Positions 1-26,222 of a stretch of DNA of 26,222 bases are shown here, one piece after another. This DNA comes from Candidatus Aerophobota bacterium (GTDB taxonomy: Bacteria; Aerophobota; Aerophobia; Aerophobales; AE-B3A): contig SOJT01000095.1 of assembly GCA_004376485.1 (NCBI GenBank), positions 1 through 26,222 on the forward strand, given 5' to 3'. The notes beneath the pieces were generated by a model that made no database searches, was not told the origin of the DNA, and saw only the letters and a program-made list of their open reading frames with translations. Position numbers and translations under genes: made by a program. Numbering within the stretch: position 1 is the first letter of the stretch; each line of letters opens with the position of its first letter.

Positions 1-2
1 AT

Positions 3-65
3 CAAGGTTATGTTCTTGACGGTAAAGAGAGTTTAAAAATTACCGTCTCATCAGAAATTTCTTGA
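3..65 (+). CDS. 3' end of an upstream gene (partial; ...QGYVLDGKESLKITVSSEIS*), possibly a Zn-dependent MDR alcohol dehydrogenase
   Basis: Open frame from the window edge to TGA at 63-65, directly followed by an RBS. KESLKITV resembles MDR C-termini (e.g. REALKVIL), but 20 residues are too few to be sure. Confidence 0.4.
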   Translation, partial: QGYVLDGKESLKITVSSEIS

Positions 66-86
66 AGAAAAGGAGGAGAAAATGCC
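53..86 (+). repeat. 34-bp direct repeat, copy 1 (AGAAATTTCTTGAAGAAAAGGAGGAGAAAATGCC)
   Basis: 33/34 identical to 9295-9328; spans a stop codon (GAA ATT TCT TGA), an SD (AGGAGG) and ATG CC. Confidence 0.9.
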
Positions 87-123
87 ATGTGCGTATTGGA
101 TGCATAAAGGAAAAGAGGATTAA
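82..123 (+). pseudogene. 13-codon stub ORF MPCAYWMHKGKED* behind a strong RBS; possible remnant of a deleted gene
   Basis: ATG at 82 preceded by AGGAGG; RBS and first codons (ATG CC) match the start of the AOR gene; TAA at 121-123, 2 nt before the ATPase ATG. Confidence 0.35.
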
Positions 124-125
124 TA

Positions 126-1220
126 ATGGCTGAAGTTGTTCTTAAAGAAGTTTGTAAGAATTATGGTAAAGTTGAAGCAGTCAAAAACGTTAATCTAAAA
201 TGCGAGGATGGACAGTTTATGTGTCTTCTGGGGCCTTCGGGATGTGGAAAATCATCAACTTTAAGAATGATTGCGGGATTAGAACAAATAACTAAGGGGG
301 AGATATATATAGGAGATGGCTTAGTTAACGCTATACCTCCAAAGGATAGAAATATAGCTATGGTGTTTGAAACTTATGCTCTTTATCCTCATCTTTCGGT
401 ATATGGCAACATAGCTTTTCCTTTAAAAATACGAAATTTTTCCAAGTCACAAATTGATAAAAAGGTAAAAGAAGTTGCTGAAATGCTGGACATGAACGAT
501 TTTCTCTCAAAGAGAGTAAGAGGTCTGGGTGATGGACAAAAGCAAAGAGTATCTATTGCAAGGGCCCTAGTGAGGGAACCAGAGGTATTTTTGATGGACG
601 AGCCAATTTCTCACCTGGATGCAAAACTAAGAACCCGAATGAGAGGGGAGCTTAAAAGATTACAGAAAGAAACGGGGATTACCTGTGTTTATGTAACTCA
701 TGATCAGATAGAAGCTATGGCTTTAGGAGATAAAATTGCAGTCATGAATTTTGGGGTTCTCCAACAAGTTGGAACTCCTCAGGAAGTATATGACCACCCC
801 GTAACTGAGTCTGTAGCCGGTTTTATTGGTGAGCCTCCCATGAATTTTTTGGACTGCGCTGTTGCAAGAGAAAAAGGGGATTTACTCTTATTATCACCAT
901 CATTCAAGATATATTTACCCAATAAGATAAAAAAGACTATAGAACAAAAAGGTGTACCTTCTGAGGTTCTTATGGGGGTGAGGCCAACAGATATAGAAGT
1001 ATCGAGAGAAAAATCCGACCCTGAGTCTATTAGAGCAGAGGTCTATACTATCGAGCCAAGAGGAGATGGATTAGTTCTAACTGTCAAACTCGGCAAAAAC
1101 CTTGTTAGGGTGGAGTGTGCAGAGGAGTTTAAGTCAAGAACAGGAGATACAATCTGGTTGAATCCAGAAAAAGAGAGAATTCATCTCTTTGATAAATCTA
1201 CTGGGGTAAGTCTTATTTGA
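126..1220 (+). CDS. Carbohydrate ABC transporter ATP-binding protein (MalK/UgpC-like), importer 1 subunit A; degenerate signature LGDGQ
   Basis: Walker A GPSGCGKS, Walker B/D-loop VFLMDEPISHLD, H-loop YVTHDQ, GFIGEPPMN, C-terminal TOBE-like region. Confidence 0.95.
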   Translation: MAEVVLKEVCKNYGKVEAVKNVNLKCEDGQFMCLLGPSGCGKSSTLRMIAGLEQITKGEIYIGDGLVNAIPPKDRNIAMVFETYALYPHLSVYGNIAFPLKIRNFSKSQIDKKVKEVAEMLDMNDFLSKRVRGLGDGQKQRVSIARALVREPEVFLMDEPISHLDAKLRTRMRGELKRLQKETGITCVYVTHDQIEAMALGDKIAVMNFGVLQQVGTPQEVYDHPVTESVAGFIGEPPMNFLDCAVAREKGDLLLLSPSFKIYLPNKIKKTIEQKGVPSEVLMGVRPTDIEVSREKSDPESIRAEVYTIEPRGDGLVLTVKLGKNLVRVECAEEFKSRTGDTIWLNPEKERIHLFDKSTGVSLI

Positions 1221-1226
1221 GGAGAT

Positions 1227-2342
1227 TTGCAATTGCCAGGAGTTAGTTTAAAAAACATATGGAAGAAATACGGTGGCGTAGAAGCAGTAAAAGGAGTAAG
1301 TTTTGATTGCCAAAAGGGGCAATTTTTTTGTCTGTTAGGTCCTTCAGGGGCAGGCAAAACTTCTATTTTGAAAATGACCGCCGGCGTGGAAGAAGTTACT
1401 TCGGGAGAAATTTATATAGAGGACCGTCTTGTGAATGATGTTAAACCACAGGAGCGGGATATAGCTATGATGTTTGAGAATTATGCTCTTTATCCCCACC
1501 TTACCGTATTTGGAAATATGGCTTCTCCTTTGAGCTCACATATCAGAAAAGCTAAGTATTCCTCAAATGAAATTGGAAAGATTATCAGAGAAACAGCGAG
1601 ATTGCTTTCCATAGAAGAACTCTTGGACCGGTATCCCAGACAGCTATCAGGTGGCCAAAAGCAGCGAGCAGCCCTAGGTAGAGCATTGGTTAGAAAACCC
1701 TCGGTATTTTTACTAGACGAACCTATCTCTCACCTTGATGCTAAATTAAGGCACAATATGAGAACAGAGCTCAAGAAAATTCACGAAGAAGTGGGAGTTT
1801 CCCTCATTTATGCAACTCCCGATCAACTTGAAGCTATATCTATGGCAGATGTCATCGCGGTTATCAATAAGGGAGAAATCCAACAGATAGGAACTCCCGA
1901 GGAGGTATTTGACCACCCTGCAAATGAATTTGTAGCTGGTTTTATTGGTGAACCTCCCATGAACTTATTTAGCTGTTCGTTACGGAAAAAGACTGGAGAG
2001 TTATTTCTGAGAATAGGGGACTTTGAGCTTATGCTTTCCCAAGAAGTGAAGAAAAAATTGGAAGAGCAAATGGTGTCTGATGAAATAAAGGCAGGTATAA
2101 GACCGACCAATTTGCATGTAACAAAAAGGAAAAAAGACAAAAATTCTATCGGTACGGAGATTTATGTTTTTGAACCGCTGGGAAGATACAGCATTGCTAC
2201 AGCAAGAGTTAATAACATACTCTTAAAAATCAAAATAAGGGGACATTTCGAAGCCACAGAAGGTGAACAGGTGTGGTTGAATTTTGACACAAATAAGTTT
2301 CACTTCTTTGAGACAAAATCAGGTTCTGCCATAGTTACCTGA
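1227..2342 (+). CDS. Carbohydrate ABC transporter ATP-binding protein, importer 1 subunit B; H-loop His replaced by Pro
   Basis: TTG start after GGAG; Walker A GPSGAGKT, signature LSGGQ, VFLLDEPISHLD, YATPDQ in place of YVTHDQ. Confidence 0.93.
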   Translation: MQLPGVSLKNIWKKYGGVEAVKGVSFDCQKGQFFCLLGPSGAGKTSILKMTAGVEEVTSGEIYIEDRLVNDVKPQERDIAMMFENYALYPHLTVFGNMASPLSSHIRKAKYSSNEIGKIIRETARLLSIEELLDRYPRQLSGGQKQRAALGRALVRKPSVFLLDEPISHLDAKLRHNMRTELKKIHEEVGVSLIYATPDQLEAISMADVIAVINKGEIQQIGTPEEVFDHPANEFVAGFIGEPPMNLFSCSLRKKTGELFLRIGDFELMLSQEVKKKLEEQMVSDEIKAGIRPTNLHVTKRKKDKNSIGTEIYVFEPLGRYSIATARVNNILLKIKIRGHFEATEGEQVWLNFDTNKFHFFETKSGSAIVT

Positions 2343-2364
2343 TAATATGCCGATTCAACGTGTA

Positions 2365-2393
2365 CTAGTTTCTCCTGAGAAGGAGAGGTCTAG
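2365..2393 (+). other. Intercistronic stem-loop with GAGA tetraloop
   Basis: TCTCCT-GAGA-AGGAGA (2371-2386), extendable through G-U pairs and a 1-nt bulge to CTAG/CTAG. Confidence 0.45.
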
Positions 2394-2410
2394 ATATGGA
2401 AGAGAAGTGA

Positions 2411-2420
2411 AAGGAGGTGA
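2411..2420 (+). promoter_or_regulatory. Orphan Shine-Dalgarno AAGGAGGTGA upstream of binding-protein gene 1
   Basis: Full anti-SD complement with no ATG/GTG/TTG at usable spacing; the gene's own RBS (AAAGGAG) lies ~40 nt downstream. Confidence 0.5.
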
Positions 2421-2468
2421 GGTAGGCAAAGTTAAGAGAAAAAGGCGAACGAAAGGAGATAAACTCTC

Positions 2469-3935
2469 ATGAAAAAAAGCACGATAGTTTACCTGATGGT
2501 AGTTTCGTTAGCTGTGGCACTGGCTTTTGGTACCTTCACCGCACATGCCTGGACTCCCGATGAGCAGGCTCTTCTTGACAAAGCTAAGGAAATCGCTTCA
2601 GACAATGCTGGTGTGTGGTCTCTCGAAGAAGCCGCAAAGCCTTACAGAGGGGTAACCCTGAAAATACTGGCCGACGCTGCAACAGAAGCCGATGCTCCAC
2701 AAAACTATGATTCTGAGTTCATCAAAATGACCGGAATTAAGGTGCTATGGGAACAGAATCCCTGGGATGAGCACAGGTCAAAAATGTTTATGGATTTTGC
2801 AGCGGGGACAGGAATCTACGATCTGGTATGGGTACCTTTTGATGATATGGCCAGTGTCACGGGAAAAGGATACGTACAGCCCGTTGATAAATTTATGCTC
2901 AACCCTAAGCTTCTTGACCCCAACATCAACCTGGATGACTACTCAGAGGCTCTGTGGAAATATACCAGCTGGTACGGAAAACCCGCCAAGCCGTATGGAT
3001 TTCCCTGCGAGAATCCCACTATGATTCTGTGGTACAGGAAGGACCTGTTCGACAACCCTACAGAGAAAGCCAATTTCAAGAAGACCTACAGATACGAGCT
3101 TCAGGTACCGAAGAATTTTGAACAGTACAACCACATTGCTGAGTTCTTTACCCGGAAAAAGGGAGAACGATTGGCGGGTGAGGTTCTTGACCGAGATTTC
3201 TACGGAGTCGGCCAGTCTGGCAAAAGACACTGGGCATCAGTCTGCGAGTGGATGAATCTTGCCTCCACCTGGGGGGGTCCTACCTGGGGTGGAACTCTGG
3301 ATGAGAACGACGATGTAGTAATTAATCGCCCGGAGAATGTGGAGGCTTTAGAGTACTGGATATCCCTTTTCAGGTTTTCCCCTCCTGGTTCTGTGGACTG
3401 GTACTGGGATCTAAAAAGTACAGCTTTCCAGAAGAATATAGTGGCTATGGCTTTAGCTTGGAATGATCAATCTTATGAGATAGAGGATCCTGAAAAGTCT
3501 GAAGTTGCCGGAAAGATGGGCTACGATTTGATTCCCATCCAAAAATACCCGGTGAGTCACTTTGGTTCGTGGAGCTGGACTATACCCACTAAAGCTAAGA
3601 ATCCCGACGCTGCGTGGCTATATCTACAATGGGTAAACTCCAGAGACATTGCGCTCAAGTGTGCTTTGGAAGGAGCTATGCCCTCGAGAAAGTATGTTTT
3701 TGACAGCCCGGAAATTTCTGCTATTCCGTTTATGCCAGCTACCAAAAAGGCTTTGGACCACGCTTTTCCAAGACCCGTGCACAGGCCCGAATGGGGCGAA
3801 ATGGGTGAGATACTTGCACTTTATCTGACCAAGGCACACCGAATGGAAATGACAGCACAGGAAGCTCTGGACAAAGTAGCCGTAGAATGGCAAAGGCTTC
3901 TGGGGACAAGCATAGTTCATCCACCAAAGACATAG
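2469..3935 (+). CDS. Extracellular solute-binding protein, family 1 (sugar/polyol), importer 1
   Basis: Sec signal peptide ending AHA; motifs TGIKV, YDLVWV, LWYRKDLF, P..AWLYLQW typical of CUT1 binding proteins; RBS AAAGGAG. Confidence 0.92.
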   Translation: MKKSTIVYLMVVSLAVALAFGTFTAHAWTPDEQALLDKAKEIASDNAGVWSLEEAAKPYRGVTLKILADAATEADAPQNYDSEFIKMTGIKVLWEQNPWDEHRSKMFMDFAAGTGIYDLVWVPFDDMASVTGKGYVQPVDKFMLNPKLLDPNINLDDYSEALWKYTSWYGKPAKPYGFPCENPTMILWYRKDLFDNPTEKANFKKTYRYELQVPKNFEQYNHIAEFFTRKKGERLAGEVLDRDFYGVGQSGKRHWASVCEWMNLASTWGGPTWGGTLDENDDVVINRPENVEALEYWISLFRFSPPGSVDWYWDLKSTAFQKNIVAMALAWNDQSYEIEDPEKSEVAGKMGYDLIPIQKYPVSHFGSWSWTIPTKAKNPDAAWLYLQWVNSRDIALKCALEGAMPSRKYVFDSPEISAIPFMPATKKALDHAFPRPVHRPEWGEMGEILALYLTKAHRMEMTAQEALDKVAVEWQRLLGTSIVHPPKT

Positions 3936-3950
3936 TAAAGAAGGTAATAC

Positions 3951-3988
3951 CCGGAAGATGGGGTGGGTTTACTCATCCCGTCTTTCGG
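3951..3988 (+). terminator. 17-bp RNA hairpin (4 G-U pairs) after binding-protein gene 1; stabiliser/attenuator rather than a classical terminator
   Basis: CCGGAAGATGGGGTGGG-TTTA-CTCATCCCGTCTTTCGG pairs fully when G-U is allowed; no U-tract follows. Confidence 0.65.
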
Positions 3989-4007
3989 TCAAGATAAGGA
4001 GAAGACC

Positions 4008-4892
4008 GTGCTAAAACGGAAGTATACTGGATATCTCTTACTCCTTCCAACTTTGGCTTTGTTGGCGTTTCTCAGTCTAGTTCCTTTTATTTATGCTTTT
4101 AACTTGAGCCTGCGTGACTTGAATCTGAGAATCCCTCGGTTAGCAGGACAGTTTGTTGGCGTGGATAATTTCAGGTATCTAATGAGAGAGGATTCTGAAT
4201 TCTGGCATTCCATGGGGATCACCGTGCTTTTTTTGGTAGTGGTGGTAAGCATAGAGTTTGTAGCGGGGTTTGCTTTGGCTCTACTCTTAAATCGAGAGTT
4301 TAAGGGGAAAAGGATCGTGGTCTCTTTAGCCGTAATTCCTATGATGATAGCTCCTGTCGCAGTGGGACTGATGTGGAGGGTTGCCCTCAACTACGAACTG
4401 GGCATAGTAACTTACCTCTTGAAAAGTATAGGTATACCTATGAAAGAGGCATTATTGGGAACCTCTGCTACTGCACTAGCCACACTTATGGTTATTGATA
4501 TATGGCAATGGACTCCCTTCATATTTCTCATAATACTAGCTGGGCTTCACAGTTTGCCCAAAGAACCGTATGAGGCTGCTCAGGTGGACGGCGCTTCTAA
4601 ATGGAAAATATTCCGTCTGGTAACTCTTCCCTTGCTAAAACCTTTGATAATCATTGCTTTACTTTTAAGGGTAATAGACGCCTTCAAAACTTTCGATCAG
4701 GTTTATATTCTCACCGGAGGCGGACCAGGAAATGCCACTGATTTGGTCTGCATGTTTGCTTACAGGACTAATTTCAAGATATGGAATCTGGGGTATGGAG
4801 CGGCTGTAGTGCTGGTCATTTTTCTCGTGATCCTTATAGTAACCGCTTTCTTTTATGCTGTTACTCAGAAAAAAGAGGAGGAGGTAGTATAA
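4008..4892 (+). CDS. Carbohydrate ABC transporter permease (MalF/UgpA-like), importer 1
   Basis: EAA loop YEAAQVDGASKWKIFRLVTLPLL, FVGVDNF, DIWQWTPF. Start moved from 3963 to GTG 4008, which follows AAGGAG and avoids the hairpin. Confidence 0.92.
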   Translation: MLKRKYTGYLLLLPTLALLAFLSLVPFIYAFNLSLRDLNLRIPRLAGQFVGVDNFRYLMREDSEFWHSMGITVLFLVVVVSIEFVAGFALALLLNREFKGKRIVVSLAVIPMMIAPVAVGLMWRVALNYELGIVTYLLKSIGIPMKEALLGTSATALATLMVIDIWQWTPFIFLIILAGLHSLPKEPYEAAQVDGASKWKIFRLVTLPLLKPLIIIALLLRVIDAFKTFDQVYILTGGGPGNATDLVCMFAYRTNFKIWNLGYGAAVVLVIFLVILIVTAFFYAVTQKKEEEVV

Positions 4893-4893
4893 G

Positions 4894-5739
4894 TTGAAAA
4901 AAACAAAAGTCCTTACTTCGAGAAGACAGTTCATAGAGATAGGGCTTCTATCCGTGGCTGCTTTCATCGTATTTCTGGAAGTTGCCCCTTTTTTGTGGAT
5001 AGTATTAATGTCTTTTAAGAGCAGACTGGATATTTTTGAGATTCCACCTAAGTTAATATTCAATCCTATTCTGGACAACTATTATAATGCTTTTGTGGAA
5101 GGCCCTTTTAGCAAGTATCTGATTAATTCCTTGATTATCGACTCCTCAAGTACGGCTCTGGCAATTCTGATTGGAACTCTGGCTGCCTATGCTTTTTCCA
5201 GATTTAAAATATGGGGTGGAAAACAAATTTTCTTTTACATTCTTACTACCAGGATGTGTCCTCCCGTTGTGGTTGCTCTTCCCTTGTTTATGATTTATTC
5301 AAAGCTAAAGTTATATGATACCCATATTGGAGTAATTCTGATACATACTATTTTTAATTTAGCTCTGGTTATATGGTTGATGAGAGGTTTCTTTGATGAG
5401 ATTCCTCAAGAAATAGACCAGGCAGCTATGATTGATGGTCATAGTGAGTGGACTATTTTCAGAAAGTTTATCTTTCCTTTAGTTCTCCCCGGAATTGTAG
5501 TTAGCGCTATGTTCTGTCTGGTATTCTCCTGGAATGAATTTTTATTTGCCTTGATCCTAACCCAATTTGACGCAACCACTCTACCCGTTGGAGTTCCTCA
5601 ACTCGTGACTTCCAGAGGGACATACTGGGGACAAGTTGCCGCAGTGGGAGTGGTTATTACCCTACCGGTATTAATTTTTGCTGTGACTTTCCACAGGTAT
5701 CTGATAAGAGGGCTCACTTTCGGTGCTATCAAAACATAG
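4894..5739 (+). CDS. Carbohydrate ABC transporter permease (MalG/UgpE-like), importer 1
   Basis: TTG start after GAGGAGG; AAYAFSRF, EIDQAAMIDG, FSWNEFLFAL, RGLTFGAIK. Confidence 0.93.
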   Translation: MKKTKVLTSRRQFIEIGLLSVAAFIVFLEVAPFLWIVLMSFKSRLDIFEIPPKLIFNPILDNYYNAFVEGPFSKYLINSLIIDSSSTALAILIGTLAAYAFSRFKIWGGKQIFFYILTTRMCPPVVVALPLFMIYSKLKLYDTHIGVILIHTIFNLALVIWLMRGFFDEIPQEIDQAAMIDGHSEWTIFRKFIFPLVLPGIVVSAMFCLVFSWNEFLFALILTQFDATTLPVGVPQLVTSRGTYWGQVAAVGVVITLPVLIFAVTFHRYLIRGLTFGAIKT

Positions 5740-5766
5740 TGATCATACATCTCGAGGCGATCTAAT

Positions 5767-5928
5767 ATGTCAATAGGAGACCGTATATTCTGGTCGATGA
5801 TTTGTTTCTTTGTAATTTCTCTCTTATGGTTGAAATTTGTAGAACCGTTTGTGCCTCTGTGGGGTTCTTTGTTTGTATCAGGAGTAGTGGCAGTTGTAAT
5901 TGCTACCCATAAACTGAAAAAGAAATAA
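5767..5928 (+). CDS. 53-aa membrane protein, GlpU/DUF2160-like accessory subunit (MSIGDRIFWSMICFFVISLLWLKFVEPFVPLWGSLFVSGVVAVVIATHKLKKK)
   Basis: Translated by hand (below the ORF-track cutoff). GAGG RBS, two hydrophobic segments, GDR(I/L)F motif; ungapped paralog at 15243-15410 in the same position after the second permease. Confidence 0.8.
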   Translation: MSIGDRIFWSMICFFVISLLWLKFVEPFVPLWGSLFVSGVVAVVIATHKLKKK

Positions 5929-6013
5929 TTCTCAAAAAAACTAAACCTACCTGTAAAAATATTGCGGCTGAGAAGTTCAAAATATTTCGAGAAAGCCTAG
6001 TTTTTGCGCCCAT

Positions 6014-6041
6014 TTGAAACCTCCTCTTTTCTTATTATACT
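6014..6041 (+). promoter_or_regulatory. Putative sigma70-type promoter TTGAAA-N16-TATACT
   Basis: Near-consensus hexamers ~80 nt upstream of the 6121 start in an AT-rich intergenic region. Confidence 0.4.
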
Positions 6042-6120
6042 TACTTTTGAGGACATCTCAAGTCAAAGTCATAACAAATTAGTTTCTTTTTGAGTCCCAT
6101 AAGGTCTGAGACATTTCAAG

Positions 6121-9015
6121 ATGAAGAGTAAAGTTATAAGTGAGCGGACAATCAATAGTCTTTATGGAATAATTCTAATACTATTTTTCTTTTCTGGAGT
6201 TAGTGCCCTAACCTACCAGATAATATGGGTGAAAACGCTGGGCTTGGTGTTTGGAGTTGCTACTTTTGCAGTAAGTGCGGTCTTAAGTTCCTTTATGGCC
6301 GGGTTGACATTGGGGAGTTTGTGCTTTGGGAGAGTCGTAGATAAGCACAGGGCTCCTCTAAAAATATTTGCCTTCCTGGAGCTGGGAATCGGAGTATTTG
6401 CTTTATTATTCCCTTTTCTCCTTTCCAAAATAACCCATAGTTATATTTACACGTATTGGCATTTTCACACCAGTTTTTACTTGTTTAGCTTACTTCGTTT
6501 CTTAATGATCTTTTCTCTGCTGTTGGTTCCTACTTTTTTGATGGGAGGTACCTTACCGGTTTTAAGCAAGCTTTGTGTTAGGAACCTGAAAATTTTGGGT
6601 CAGAAAGTAGGAACCCTTTATTCAGTTAATAATTTAGGTGCAGCTTTTGGCTGTTTCCTTACCGGTTTCTTTTTGGTCCGTTTAATCGGACTTACTAACA
6701 GTATTTATCTTGCTGCTGCAATAAACATTTCAATAGCAATAAGTAGTCTTATTTTAAGTAGGTCTTCCTTTACGTTTCCGGAAAATCCTACCCCCAAGGG
6801 AGCTAGTTCCCGGATGATAAACCCGAGACCAGTTCCCAAAAAAGAGAAGAAAGCTGAACACTCCAGTACTTTCTTGATTTACCTTTTGCTGATAATTTTC
6901 ACTATAAGCGGGTTTATCTCCCTGGCATACGAGGTCATCTGGACCCGAATTCTTTCTGCTTCAGTACTTGCTAACTCTGTTTACTCTTTTAGCACAGTAG
7001 TAATTACTGTTATAGTGGGTCTGGCTGTGGGGAGTTTTATTTGTGCCAGATTTATAGATAAAAAACAAGATGTATTAACTTTGTTTGGTATTGTTGAAGC
7101 AGGTATTGGAGTATCTGCCTTTTTGCTATTGCCAGCTTTTAACAGAATACCTTTTATAATTGGAAGTATATCCCCGGCTCTTTTTGGTTCCGCACCCTCC
7201 TGGAGTATGTCTGTAGCCTCAGAATTTTTTCCCGCCTTTTTATTAATGATTATTCCTACTACTCTTATGGGAATGACCTTTCCTTTAATGAGTAAGATTT
7301 ACACAAGGAGTTTGCGTAAATTGGGAAGTAAGATTGGGGAAGTTAACAGTCTTGATACAGCAGGAGCTGTTTTTGGTTCTTTTGCTGCAGGTTTTTTATT
7401 TATTCCTTGGCTTGGCATGCAAAAAAGCATTGTGGCACTTTCTCTGTTGAGCATAGGAATGGGTGGTATAGTTATTTATTTCAATCCCCACACTAGAAAA
7501 ATGCTAAAATGGGCACTTATTTCTCTTCTGGTGGTGATAGTAATGGCAAGTATTGCCTTTATCCCGCGTGATTTTGATTTTTGGAGAAAAGGTAGGGTAC
7601 CTGGAGAAAGACTGCTGTATTACAGGGAAGATGCTGCAGCCACAGTTGTAGTGCGGGAATATCCCCAAGGTGGTCGATTAAACCGCGTTTTGGAGGTTGA
7701 CGGTACAGATGTTGCGGGAACAGATTATATGCTTAAGAGCACTCAAAAACTCCAAGGTCATCTCCCTCTACTGATCCATAAAGCTCCTGAAAAAGTCCTC
7801 ATTGTTGGATTCGGGAGTGGAGGAACCACCTGGGCAGTATCCCGGCATAATGTGAAAAGGATAGATACCGTTGAGCTTGTTCCCAGCGTAATAGAAGCTG
7901 CTGCCAGACATTTTACCGAAGTTAATCATGGGGTAATAAACGATCCTCGAGTCAATATCAAAGTTGGTGATGGTAGAAATTTTGTTCTAACCACTCAGGA
8001 AAAGTATGATGTAATACTAACCGAGTCAATTCATCCCATATATGCTGGTAATGGCAATTTATACAGTCGGGAGTATTTTAACTTATGCAAGGAGAAATTG
8101 ACGGAGAATGGAATTATGAGTGTATGGATTCCTCTATGGGCTTTGCCTGAGCAGCATTTCAAGATGATTATAGAAACATTCCGTCAGGTATTTCCTCATT
8201 CTACACTCTGGTATGTAGCAAACTGTTTAAATCGGCAGGTATATCTAATAGGCAGTAGAGATAAGCTGAAAATCGACTTCAAATCCTTGCAAATCCGGAT
8301 GTCTATGGAAAACGTTGCCCAGGATCTGGAAGAGATTGGGATGAACAATCCATTTCTTCTGTTAAGTTCATTTATGATGAAAGAGGTTTCTCTCAAAAGA
8401 TACGCAAAAGGAGCAAAAATAAACAGCGATGATCATCCTCTTCTGGAATATTTTGATTACCCCTATTTAGAATTCTTTCCCTCTGAGAGCTTCCATGTAA
8501 GAACTGTATATGAGAATCTTTCCGCCATTGAGGACTACAAAGAGGAGGTAACGCCCTTTTTGATTAATCTTGGAGATGATAAAGAAGAAGTTGAAGAAGT
8601 AAAGCAAATGTTGTCAATATATTCTAAATCTACAAAGCACACCACCAAGGGTATAATTTATTCTTTAAGGGGGAGACTGAAACAGGCTATTCAGGAGTAT
8701 GGGAGAGCTTTGGAGACAAATCCTCAGGATAAATCGGCTCAACGGTTACTAACTCACTTACTCGAGCATATTTATGTGAACAGAGGCAATGAGCTGCAGT
8801 ATAAAGGGGATATCGAGGGGGCAATTGCCTCTTACAAAAAGGCGCTGGAAGTGAATCCTAATTCTACTATCGCCCGTTATAACTTAGCTCTAACTTATTT
8901 AAGGAAAGGAATGAGAGAAGAGGCAAAGATTGAATTAAAGAAAGCTTTACAGATAGACCCAGAAATGAAAGCTGCCCAGAGACTGCTGGGTCAGTTGGAA
9001 AATTTTGAATACTAA
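6121..9015 (+). CDS. Fused multi-TM membrane domain / spermidine-synthase-like SAM-binding domain / TPR protein
   Basis: Two tandem membrane repeats (SGVSALTYQIIW...FLMGGTLP and SGFISLAYEVIW...TLMGMTFP); VLIVGFGSGGT, VELVPSV, GDGRNF, YDVILTESIHP; C-terminal TPR-like helices (AIASYKKALEVNP, ARYNLALTY). Confidence 0.88.
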   Translation: MKSKVISERTINSLYGIILILFFFSGVSALTYQIIWVKTLGLVFGVATFAVSAVLSSFMAGLTLGSLCFGRVVDKHRAPLKIFAFLELGIGVFALLFPFLLSKITHSYIYTYWHFHTSFYLFSLLRFLMIFSLLLVPTFLMGGTLPVLSKLCVRNLKILGQKVGTLYSVNNLGAAFGCFLTGFFLVRLIGLTNSIYLAAAINISIAISSLILSRSSFTFPENPTPKGASSRMINPRPVPKKEKKAEHSSTFLIYLLLIIFTISGFISLAYEVIWTRILSASVLANSVYSFSTVVITVIVGLAVGSFICARFIDKKQDVLTLFGIVEAGIGVSAFLLLPAFNRIPFIIGSISPALFGSAPSWSMSVASEFFPAFLLMIIPTTLMGMTFPLMSKIYTRSLRKLGSKIGEVNSLDTAGAVFGSFAAGFLFIPWLGMQKSIVALSLLSIGMGGIVIYFNPHTRKMLKWALISLLVVIVMASIAFIPRDFDFWRKGRVPGERLLYYREDAAATVVVREYPQGGRLNRVLEVDGTDVAGTDYMLKSTQKLQGHLPLLIHKAPEKVLIVGFGSGGTTWAVSRHNVKRIDTVELVPSVIEAAARHFTEVNHGVINDPRVNIKVGDGRNFVLTTQEKYDVILTESIHPIYAGNGNLYSREYFNLCKEKLTENGIMSVWIPLWALPEQHFKMIIETFRQVFPHSTLWYVANCLNRQVYLIGSRDKLKIDFKSLQIRMSMENVAQDLEEIGMNNPFLLLSSFMMKEVSLKRYAKGAKINSDDHPLLEYFDYPYLEFFPSESFHVRTVYENLSAIEDYKEEVTPFLINLGDDKEEVEEVKQMLSIYSKSTKHTTKGIIYSLRGRLKQAIQEYGRALETNPQDKSAQRLLTHLLEHIYVNRGNELQYKGDIEGAIASYKKALEVNPNSTIARYNLALTYLRKGMREEAKIELKKALQIDPEMKAAQRLLGQLENFEY

Positions 9016-25763: not shown

Positions 25764-25856
25764 GGAGAGGTGGCTGAGTGGTCTAAAGCGGTTGATTCGA
25801 AATCAACTGAGTGCCTTAGCGGTGCTCCGTGGGTTCAAATCCCACCCTCTCCGCCA
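25764..25856 (+). tRNA. tRNA-Ser(CGA)
   Basis: Acceptor GGAGAGG/CCTCTCC, discriminator G, encoded CCA; anticodon arm GTTGA-TTCGAAA-TCAAC (CGA at 25798-25800); long variable arm; T-arm GTGGG-TTCAAAT-CCCAC. Confidence 0.97.
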
Positions 25857-25895
25857 GTGCAACCAATTTGAACTTTTGTACCTATCATCATCCAA

Positions 25896-25982
25896 CAAAA
25901 AAACATCTCTCGGTACGAAACCGGGGCATCGCTACCATCCATACGAACTCTAATCAAAATCGCCAAAGCTCTCAAAAAACCT
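25896..25982 (+). pseudogene. 5'-truncated XRE/Cro-C1 (HTH_3) regulator fragment QKNISRYETGASLPSIRTLIKIAKALKKP
   Basis: Matches the XRE pattern ISxYExG...PS...L.KIA.AL; in-frame stop at 25869-25871 and no start codon upstream of it. Confidence 0.7.
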
Positions 25983-25990
25983 ACTAAAGT

Positions 25991-26050
25991 GCCGAACCAA
26001 GCAAATGCAGCCGACGCAGTAAACTACCCGGCTGATTTGCGGCGTTATCT
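25991..26050 (+). mobile_element. Integron attC-like recombination site (60 bp)
   Basis: R'' GCCGAAC (25991-25997) and R' GTTATCT (26044-26050); arms GCAAAT[G]CAGCCG / CGGCTGATTTGC pair perfectly except one extrahelical G (26007); unpaired spacer CAA/GGC next to AAC/GTT. Confidence 0.75.
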
Positions 26051-26082
26051 TCACAGACGTATCAAATACGCGAAAAATGTAC

Positions 26083-26111
26083 TTGACAAATATGTATTAA
26101 TGATGCATAAT
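26083..26111 (+). promoter_or_regulatory. sigma70-type promoter TTGACA-N17-CATAAT for the antitoxin gene
   Basis: Perfect -35, 5/6 -10, 17-bp spacer, 38 nt upstream of the ATG. Confidence 0.75.
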
Positions 26112-26118
26112 GATGCAT
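26099..26118. repeat. Tandem 10-bp direct repeat (AATGATGCAT)x2 over the -10 box; probable operator
   Basis: Two perfect copies, each ending in the palindrome ATGCAT; a further TGCAT at 26126-26130. Confidence 0.65.
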
Positions 26119-26149
26119 GTATTATTGCATATATTTGGAGGTGTGGACC

Positions 26150-26222
26150 ATGAGAACAACCTTGAACATTGAAGACAAACTGATTGATAAAGCTTCGAAG
26201 TTGACGGGTGTCAAAGAGAAGA
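26150..26222 (+). CDS. vapB: Type II toxin-antitoxin VapB-family (RHH) antitoxin, 5' part only
   Basis: GGAGGT RBS; MRTTLNIEDKLIDKASKLTGVKEK fits the MRTTL.IDD.L...A..LTG..EK antitoxin pattern; cut by the window end. Confidence 0.8.
   Translation, partial: MRTTLNIEDKLIDKASKLTGVKEK

Follow-up and report, generated by a model that had tools for sequence, protein, structure and literature searches.

A probable decayed attC site and a vapBC cassette beside tRNA-Ser(CGA) at a contig end of Candidatus Aerophobota

We examined the right end of a 26,222-bp contig from Candidatus Aerophobota (GenBank SOJT01000095.1, assembly GCA_004376485.1; the window, which is the entire contig), where the remnant of an XRE gene, a 60-bp imperfect palindrome and a self-promoted vapB gene follow tRNA-Ser(CGA) in that order (Table 1). 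The vapB gene is cut by the contig end, and no downstream sequence is readable there. The host is an uncultured marine-sediment Aerophobetes bacterium, whose metagenome-assembled genome (MAG) comprises 949 kb (0.95 Mb) in 220 contigs and is 82.6% complete; its genome is very small, at about 1.1 Mb estimated. An initial annotation made from the sequence alone had named these four elements, each of which is present where it placed them, and had read the palindrome as an integron-type attC site followed by a toxin-antitoxin (TA) cassette. Because of comparative evidence from relatives, not of fold energy, we arrive at an integron reading as well: the palindrome is probably a partly decayed attC that is joined at G|TT to a vapBC cassette and, with it, opens an array beside tRNA-Ser(CGA) that lacks an integrase, the type known as CALIN (cluster of attC sites lacking integron integrase).

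When related genomes were searched at the DNA level and metagenome contigs were scanned by pattern, the contig tail resolved into a mosaic of three segments (A, B and C), each with separate relatives. The order A|B|C is also found in L042 and L046 (both JGI), L047 (ENA) and a 10.5-kb contig from run X3, and Logan contigs from runs X1, X2 and X15 bridge it. Since these contigs come from separate studies, the junctions are real rather than an assembly chimera; our read-level check of them yielded assembled contigs only, and the uncovered parts carry no evidential weight. L042, a metagenome contig of another strain, is 98.3% identical to the window. Its positions 8,189–8,309 differ from window positions 25,857–25,977, in the XRE remnant (segment A), at 17 of 121 sites, and segments B plus C differ at 1 of 245. 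All assemblies of this population end inside vapB or vapC. Exact-protein look-ups made to extend the contig returned no matches for L21, the VapB of G010 or the IntI of L044, and the VapB of L042 led to two contigs, both likewise ending inside vapC.

Table 1. Features at the right end of the window. Equivalent labels for loci in relatives: L014, G007:C101; L015, G007:C46; L017, G009:C25; L049, G009:C45; L051, G020:C126.
Feature	Position	Strand	Description	Basis
tRNA-Ser(CGA)	25,764–25,856	+	intact; left landmark of the variable region	ARAGORN; Rfam RF00005, 62.3 bits
Segment A	25,857–25,979		XRE remnant	
XRE-family (HTH_3) pseudogene	25,857–25,979	+	3' end replaced by segment B after ...CTCAAAAAACC	Pfam; relatives' intact copies
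Segment B	25,980–26,043		hairpin without its GTT	
Segment B leader	25,980–25,990	+	CCTACTAAAGT; accompanies the hairpin in three unrelated contexts, origin unexplained	window/L042, G007:C101, L043/L045
Probable decayed attC site	25,991–26,050	+	60-bp imperfect palindrome, AAC...GTT	fold; relatives' homologs; model R2; homology breakpoints
R''	25,991–25,997	+	GCCGAAC	
Spacer, 5' arm	25,998–26,000	+	CAA	
L''	26,001–26,013	+	stem GCAAAT (26,001–26,006), extrahelical G (26,007), stem CAGCCG (26,008–26,013)	
Loop	26,014–26,028	+	15 nt	
L'	26,029–26,040	+	CGGCTG (26,029–26,034), ATTTGC (26,035–26,040)	
Spacer, 3' arm	26,041–26,043	+	GGC	
R'	26,044–26,050	+	GTTATCT	
Segment C	26,044 onward		vapBC unit	
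vapBC TA cassette, 5' part	26,045–26,222	+	starts TTATCT; cut by contig end	homology to G010:C73 and L053
vapB promoter	26,083–26,111	+	sigma-70 type, TTGACA-17-CATAAT; 11/12 consensus matches; conserved in G010, G007 and L058	
ATGCAT-containing repeats	26,096–26,135	+	overlap the -10 box; relatives keep the position with changes	read from sequence
vapB ribosome-binding site	26,137–26,141	+	GGAGG	
vapB	26,150–26,222	+	first 24 codons, ATG at 26,150	full protein in L042

The full 64-aa VapB of segment C, available from L042, scores 61.5 bits with VapB_antitoxin (PF09957); downstream of its gene comes that of a PIN-domain VapC, whose homolog in the 94%-identical G010 scores 30.9 bits for PIN; through these two contigs the type II VapBC order can be read, a vapB gene and then an overlapping PIN toxin gene. 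That vapB follows the palindrome and has its own promoter, as first proposed, is borne out by the promoter match and by PF09957, and only its start codon moves, from 26,151 to 26,150. The ATGCAT repeats are probably the operator of VapB(C), judging from their sequence. Segment C is 94% identical to G010:C73 from exactly 26,044 onward, where it lies directly after tatD, and the cassette is 95% identical to vapBC-2 of L053, which is flanked there by two strong attCs. In relatives, the cassette stands first after tatD (G010), second in the array (L053, G007) or after a DUF3795 gene (L058/L059), and in the window after the hairpin; Logan contigs hold it in at least two contexts within one run. These varied array positions mark it as a movable unit.

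The palindrome itself has the layout of an attC site. R'' and R' cores lie at its two ends on the vapB coding strand, with AAC and GTT present; L'' and L' pair over 12 bp with a 3-nt spacer on each arm, and the extra G26007 is bulged out of the top-strand 5' arm, which is the correct arm. Sequence and fold together thus uphold the first description of this element, including its single extrahelical G and unpaired spacer. We infer that the crossover point lies between 26,044 and 26,045 (G|TT). Hairpins of relatives (G007, L043, L044) add a bulged A 6 bp further in and then a continued stem, CGCAG/CTGCG. A strict geometry scan required AAC, 2–10 nt, a stem of 12 bp or more whose bulges all lie on the 5' arm, and GTT; the MAG yielded 5 such sites in all, and 20 shuffles averaged 1.95. 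A match within the 366 bp of 25,857–26,222 is unlikely by chance (about 1 in 1000), and the whole genome is not enriched. The hairpin, the attC repeats of relatives and the array cassettes have no further copy elsewhere in the MAG, and an Rfam scan of the window returned tRNA only, with no attC match, Rfam not being expected to hold such a family. Two other readings of the hairpin were dropped: as the end of minus-strand cassettes, its crossover would fall 14 nt inside a conserved segment, and as a terminator it has no T-tract and no terminator-like site. Fold energy was also given up as a discriminator. A minimum-free-energy scan constrained to AAC...GTT ranks the hairpin only 5th to 7th of 446 pairs in the window, and over wider lengths the scan gives mostly spurious long folds, even in true arrays.

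What argues most directly for an attC is the company that its homologs keep. The closest relative of the hairpin is the attC of the first cassette on metagenome contig Ga0164320_10003138 (L044), which reads AGCTAAC AAGCAAATGCAGCCGACGCAGTAAACTGCGCGGCTG...GCGTTGCGT and matches it over 39 bp at 95% identity. Positions 1,775–6,189 of that contig form a complete integron between neighbors lysW/lysX/argC. Its intI (2,779..1,775) encodes a 333-aa tyrosine recombinase that scores 480 bits with TIGR02249 (cut-off 265) and is 51.6% identical to IntI1. An attI-side GTTAGCT lies near 3,046, and three cassettes, each with an attC, are directed away from intI: a DUF1254/DUF1214 gene, hicAB and higBA. The starts of these cassettes complement their own R'' at 7/7, 6/7 and 8/8 bases, as in 3 of 3 control cases from the class 1 integron NZ_CP126340.1 (aac(6')-Ib, arr-3, dfrA27, aadA16). 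The window hairpin is therefore homologous to an attC beside an integron integrase; it also resembles the first attC on G020:C126, described below. LysX of L044 has no close match in the 31 Aerophobota genomes, and its host is probably, by sequence comparison, from a phylum other than Aerophobota.

The homologies also break where an integrase would cut. G007:C101, L043, L045 and one Logan contig match segment B only up to exactly 26,043, another Logan contig joins tatD-side sequence directly to 26,045, and a further one holds segment B alone. These breaks fall at G|TT (26,044|26,045), the crossover point of integron integrases. In G010 the vapBC cassette starts GTTATCT, and its own attC carries an R'' of AGATAAC, the reverse complement at 7/7 bases. 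A unit that starts at G|TT, complements its own R'' and shows breakpoints at 26,044/26,045 in three contexts has the boundaries of a cassette. The homolog in L044, the G|TT breakpoints, the complementarity of start and R'', and the strong flanking attCs together support the reading as attC plus cassette that was offered from the sequence alone.

We built two covariance models, both excluding the small sequence family to which the hairpin belongs: R1 from eight attC-like array sites of L044, L043, G007 and G010, and R2 from the R1 sites plus three class 1 sites. R1 detects the class 1 attC-aadA16 (35.9 bits, E 9e-7), and so the array repeats of the relatives are independently shown to be attC sites. 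R2 recovers the hairpin's homolog in L044 (33.9 bits, E 1.2e-5); for the class 1 attC of arr-3, which was held out, it gives 18.5 bits (E 0.067). Across the 31 Aerophobota genomes it finds attC matches in ten, often clustered, among them four in the 3.2-kb G020:C126 and three in G001:C315, from the genus of the window.

Arrays of such sites are laid out in several relatives. G007:C101 and G010:C73 (both after tatD) and L043 (in another setting) carry co-oriented modules in differing order: vapBC-1, vapBC-2, hicAB, relE-phd, a GNAT gene and a HEPN/AbiU2 gene. The smallest version, in L053–L057, reads tatD, attC, vapBC-1, attC, vapBC-2, attC and then housekeeping genes; in L053 the three attCs flanking vapBC-1 and vapBC-2 score 34–50 bits with R2, and those on either side of the window's cassette have E 1e-8 to 1e-10. 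Among the relatives' junctions, some lie away from GTT, and truncated or fused attCs occur, as expected of arrays that are no longer maintained. G009, of another genus, shows that the stretch after tRNA-Ser and XRE is variable among relatives too, in keeping with the tRNA integration hotspot first suggested for the window. Downstream of the orthologous rplU/tRNA-Ser/XRE on G009:C45 (1,800–8,200) lie a 1033-aa methyltransferase/restriction-like gene and a 438-aa gene, and two attCs (37.5 and 34 bits) bracket small open reading frames after the restriction-modification gene. By its sequence, this hotspot appears to carry defence genes as well as cassettes.

A genome-wide check for intI had been proposed, and no intact integron integrase exceeds the TIGR02249 cut-off in the MAG; the best matches are two Xer-like genes at about 80 bits, and tblastn with the IntI of L044 returned only the same two. 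The side on which intI usually lies is taken by tRNA-Ser, rplU and ahcY, as had been remarked of the tRNA. Nor did the 31 Aerophobota genomes, eight of them with a completeness of 90% or more, yield an intact intI, and the same search detects IntI elsewhere (G037, of another phylum, 402 bits). The IntI loci of G037 were considered for comparison and dropped, a direct-repeat search showing no obvious array. Remnants do occur. On G020:C126 (1–3,185), an N-terminal piece of intI (1–252, minus strand) scores 88 bits with the IntI model and has no Xer match. It has lost its start codon, carries one in-frame TGA and faces away from an array with attCs at 486, 1,660, 2,421 and 3,013, the first of them B-like. 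To judge from its sequence, this contig is a decaying integron in an Aerophobota genome. Aerophobota therefore once had integrons, of which the genomes examined retain arrays lacking a working integrase; the initial view of a lineage with little integron description thus needs the amendment that it is not integron-free. In L059 (441–707), a 56-aa C-terminal remnant of a tyrosine recombinase (...IYTFV...SPLDTI) follows an intact XRE gene and precedes cassettes including vapBC-2; at 71 bits for IntI and 69.4 for XerD, it is not assignable between them.

CALINs are defined by at least two attCs within 4 kb (Cury et al., 2016, PMC4889954). No integron integrase lies nearby in the 26-kb contig or in the MAG, and the locus is not a complete integron, which would have intI and attI beside the array. 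The contig shows one attC and ends 172 bp after it. By homology to G010 and L053, a second attC is expected about 0.65 kb further on, in the part left unassembled in the window, L042 and L047, and we infer formal CALIN status on that footing. The proposed start of a CALIN therefore holds for the lack of an integrase and falls short in the number of attCs, and the array begins at a non-GTT junction, not at attI.

Besides the single visible attC, with no cassette open reading frame and no GTT junction upstream, several observations count against this interpretation. R'' (GCCGAAC) departs from RYYYAAC, as had been seen from the start, and R' (GTTATCT) departs from GTTRRRY as well, the two pairing only via AAC/GTT. 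The first base to bulge from the bottom strand, the one that recombines, would be C, where G is usual, and the window copy has a broken inner stem (CGCAG/CTACC). The fold, at -11.3 kcal/mol, has z = -1.7, and 10 of 200 shuffles fold equally well. R1 fails to reach the site at E ≤ 10; it also misses or barely sees three of four class 1 attCs. R2 gives a full-length match at exactly 25,991–26,050 on the plus strand, its best in the window, at a low 15.6 bits and E 0.32, which lends weak support and is not proof, and R2 finds no attC in the MAG beyond this site. The hairpin of G007, L043 and L045 has no GTT (and hence no R') and is joined to a HEPN/AbiU2 gene; it is thus not always a cassette boundary. 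Finally, with the MAG 82.6% complete, an integrase could be unassembled.

That last point feeds an alternative in which the locus is part of a working integron, with an intact intI located past the end of the contig, or on one that was not binned, and cassettes still shuffled in cis. The 220 contigs of the incomplete MAG leave room for it, all assemblies stop within vapB or vapC, which a strain-variable region would lead one to expect, the vapBC cassette occupies its two or more contexts within a single Logan run, and in G020, also of this phylum, intI is truncated by the end of a very small contig that carries an array. We consider it unlikely: that gene, the sole intI beside an array, is a remnant with neither start codon nor open frame, the 31 genomes yielded no intact copy even among the eight most complete, the window attC is degenerate, its junctions are fixed across 98.3%-identical strains and several studies, and tRNA-Ser and housekeeping genes occupy the usual intI side.

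The locus might instead be an ordinary chromosomal TA island at a tRNA hotspot, with a hairpin arising by chance or from some other remnant and a vapBC moved by general or illegitimate recombination. Neither energy nor model score makes the hairpin significant, GTT does not mark the left junction or several of the junctions in relatives, and the XRE repeat family adjoins tRNA-Ser genes and tRNA 3' fragments, as is typical of tRNA-gene islands. We regard this as very unlikely, given that the hairpin's homolog is the attC of a complete integron, that general recombination would not be expected to produce exact G|TT breakpoints and 7/7 complementarity of start and R'', that the same cassette lies between high-scoring attCs in L053, and that a model built from the arrays recognizes a class 1 attC. 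Tied to the same surroundings is the proposal that the cassettes are cargo of a mobile island integrating at tRNA-Ser, with XRE as the island's regulator and the tRNA neighborhood reflecting an island integrase. In several genomes XRE does come after tRNA-Ser(CGA), tRNA-Ser(GCT) and 3' pieces of tRNAs, next to pieces of an HTH protein; L059 has an intact XRE, then the recombinase remnant, then cassettes; and in G009 this locus is followed by a restriction-modification gene and by cassettes bearing attCs. This proposal, which we hold to be highly improbable, leaves the attC features and the G|TT junction unexplained. It addresses the placement of the array only and in that is compatible with the attC-cassette interpretation; moreover, the L059 remnant matches IntI no worse than XerD, and L058 suggests that, in a relative, the array ends in housekeeping genes without a second tRNA-Ser 3' end.

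If the palindrome is a decayed attC, an integron integrase would once have joined the vapBC cassette (from 26,045) to it by a crossover at G|TT, and the array, in the variable region after tRNA-Ser(CGA), would have overwritten the 3' end of the resident XRE gene. In integrons, the bottom strand of attC folds, IntI binds its boxes, bulged bases decide the choice of strand and cleavage takes place in AAC; these steps reportedly go back to work by Bouvier, MacDonald and Nivina. Here, the minus strand of the window would fold into the hairpin, IntI monomers would bind the R and L boxes, bases bulged on the bottom strand (opposite 26,007 and, in relatives, 26,014) would select the strand, and the bottom-strand AAC would be cut between its A and C, giving the G|TT junction. 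The array is probably static today, and the same junctions recur in several independent metagenomes. Expression from its own autoregulated promoter and the penalty on its own loss may have kept vapBC in place, and an integrase supplied in trans could still mobilize the cassette. One could go further and propose that Aerophobota maintain and exchange attC-bounded TA and defence cassettes at fixed hotspots (tRNA-Ser/XRE and tatD), through integrases borrowed from other phyla (the nearest relative of the hairpin sits in a foreign complete integron) or a non-IntI recombinase acting on attC-like hairpins; we think this quite unlikely.

The locus shares with CALINs an attC-bounded cassette with no nearby intI and none detectable in the genome, cassettes unrelated to resistance genes, arrays of 2–4 attCs in relatives and an intI pseudogene beside one relative's array; unlike them, the contig has one attC, which is degenerate, and its genome of about 1.1 Mb belongs to a size class in which integrons are rare. 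CALINs are common in MAGs (Ghaly et al., 2022, PMC9668308), an intI pseudogene lies near 15 of 279 CALINs, and integrons are rare in very small genomes (Cury et al., 2016, PMC4889954). The TA cassettes of the Vibrio cholerae superintegron (Richard et al., 2024, PMC13108822) are likewise two-gene type II systems with their own promoter and tied to an attC, and TA pairs (vapBC, hicAB, relE-phd, higBA) dominate the arrays of the relatives. The window locus, unlike the superintegron, has no large array and no active integrase. Array stabilization and regulation of excision have been proposed as roles for superintegron TA cassettes (PMC13108822).

The hairpin also compares closely with class 1 attCs (arr-3, aadA16 and aac(6')-Ib of NZ_CP126340.1), which share its AAC...GTT cores and short unpaired spacer, carry 5'-arm bulges about 9–10 nt after AAC and have 6 bp between two bulges, the second of which is seen in the relatives. 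The arr-3 site repeats its plan of AAC, 3 unpaired nt per arm, 5–6 bp and a bulge on the top-strand 5' arm, and attC-aadA16 shares the core AGCCGACGC together with the 6-bp spacing between the two bulges. The window site differs in having its first bulge one base further from AAC, with G rather than C on the top strand, besides its aberrant R'' and broken inner stem. As in tRNA-gene islands and defence hotspots, the array stands directly after a tRNA gene, in a stretch that varies among relatives and holds restriction-modification, AbiU2 and TA genes; unlike in such islands, the unit ends carry attC hallmarks instead of direct repeats of the tRNA 3' end, and there is no island integrase.

Our findings place integron cassette arrays in Candidatus Aerophobetes/Aerophobota, and in the literature searched we found no paper linking Aerophobota or Candidatus Aerophobetes with integrons or attC sites. 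They bring out a near-identical attC core common to Aerophobota genomes and a complete integron of another lineage, and they offer a worked example of integron decay, with an integrase remnant, fused cassettes, a degenerate attC and surviving, self-expressed TA cassettes. For annotation, a cassette array explains why assemblies of this population break at this spot. Current understanding of integrons is unchanged, as CALINs (PMC4889954), self-promoted TA cassettes (PMC13108822) and attCs shared across taxa (Ghaly et al., 2022, PMC9668308) have already been described; the window locus is a well-documented but ordinary case of cassettes left without an integrase.

The XRE gene to the left of the hairpin is a pseudogene. 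The frame at 25,872–26,150 matches HTH_3 of Pfam at 27.9 bits over profile positions 23–51 of 55 only, so the XRE fragment first noted before the palindrome is indeed partial, and the window holds no complete five-helix HTH_3 domain with a start codon. Intact copies measure 71 aa in G009:C45 and 51 aa in G007:C85, both at the orthologous position after rplU and tRNA-Ser. Compared with them, the remnant has lost its promoter and about 25 N-terminal codons, has an in-frame TGA (25,869–25,871) and no start codon, and its last ~8 codons (AGYFLDE*) are replaced by foreign DNA. The junction with segment B, inside the 3' end of the pseudogene, reads AAAAAACC|TACTAAAG and is not at GTT. In L042 the XRE frame is open from the tRNA to a TAA stop just before the hairpin segment. 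In the window, the XRE-derived frame at 25,989–26,153 is open across the whole hairpin, and its TGA overlaps the vapB ATG (ATGA). An ATGA-type overlap also precedes the AbiU2 gene of G007:C101; the feature is conserved and probably coincidental.

Repeated three-part units were seen on G007:C46 (L015, 800–9,100), G009:C25 (L017, 9,900–11,200) and L059 (1–270). In each, part of a small HTH protein in antisense (...QPIRT...YGQIARSL...) is combined with a degenerate 3' end of tRNA-Ser and with XRE, as a gene or a fragment, and the units look like relics of elements that accumulated at tRNA-Ser genes.

The left end of segment B, CTACTAAAG, is identical in three unrelated contexts, without GTT. The fusion of the hairpin to AbiU2 spans 4,384–5,147 on G007:C101 and 2,157–2,922 on L043 and is also present in L045; the gene encodes a 226/228-aa HEPN_AbiU2 protein (abortive infection), and the two travel together across contexts, either as a fused cassette or with the hairpin reused as a 5' leader.

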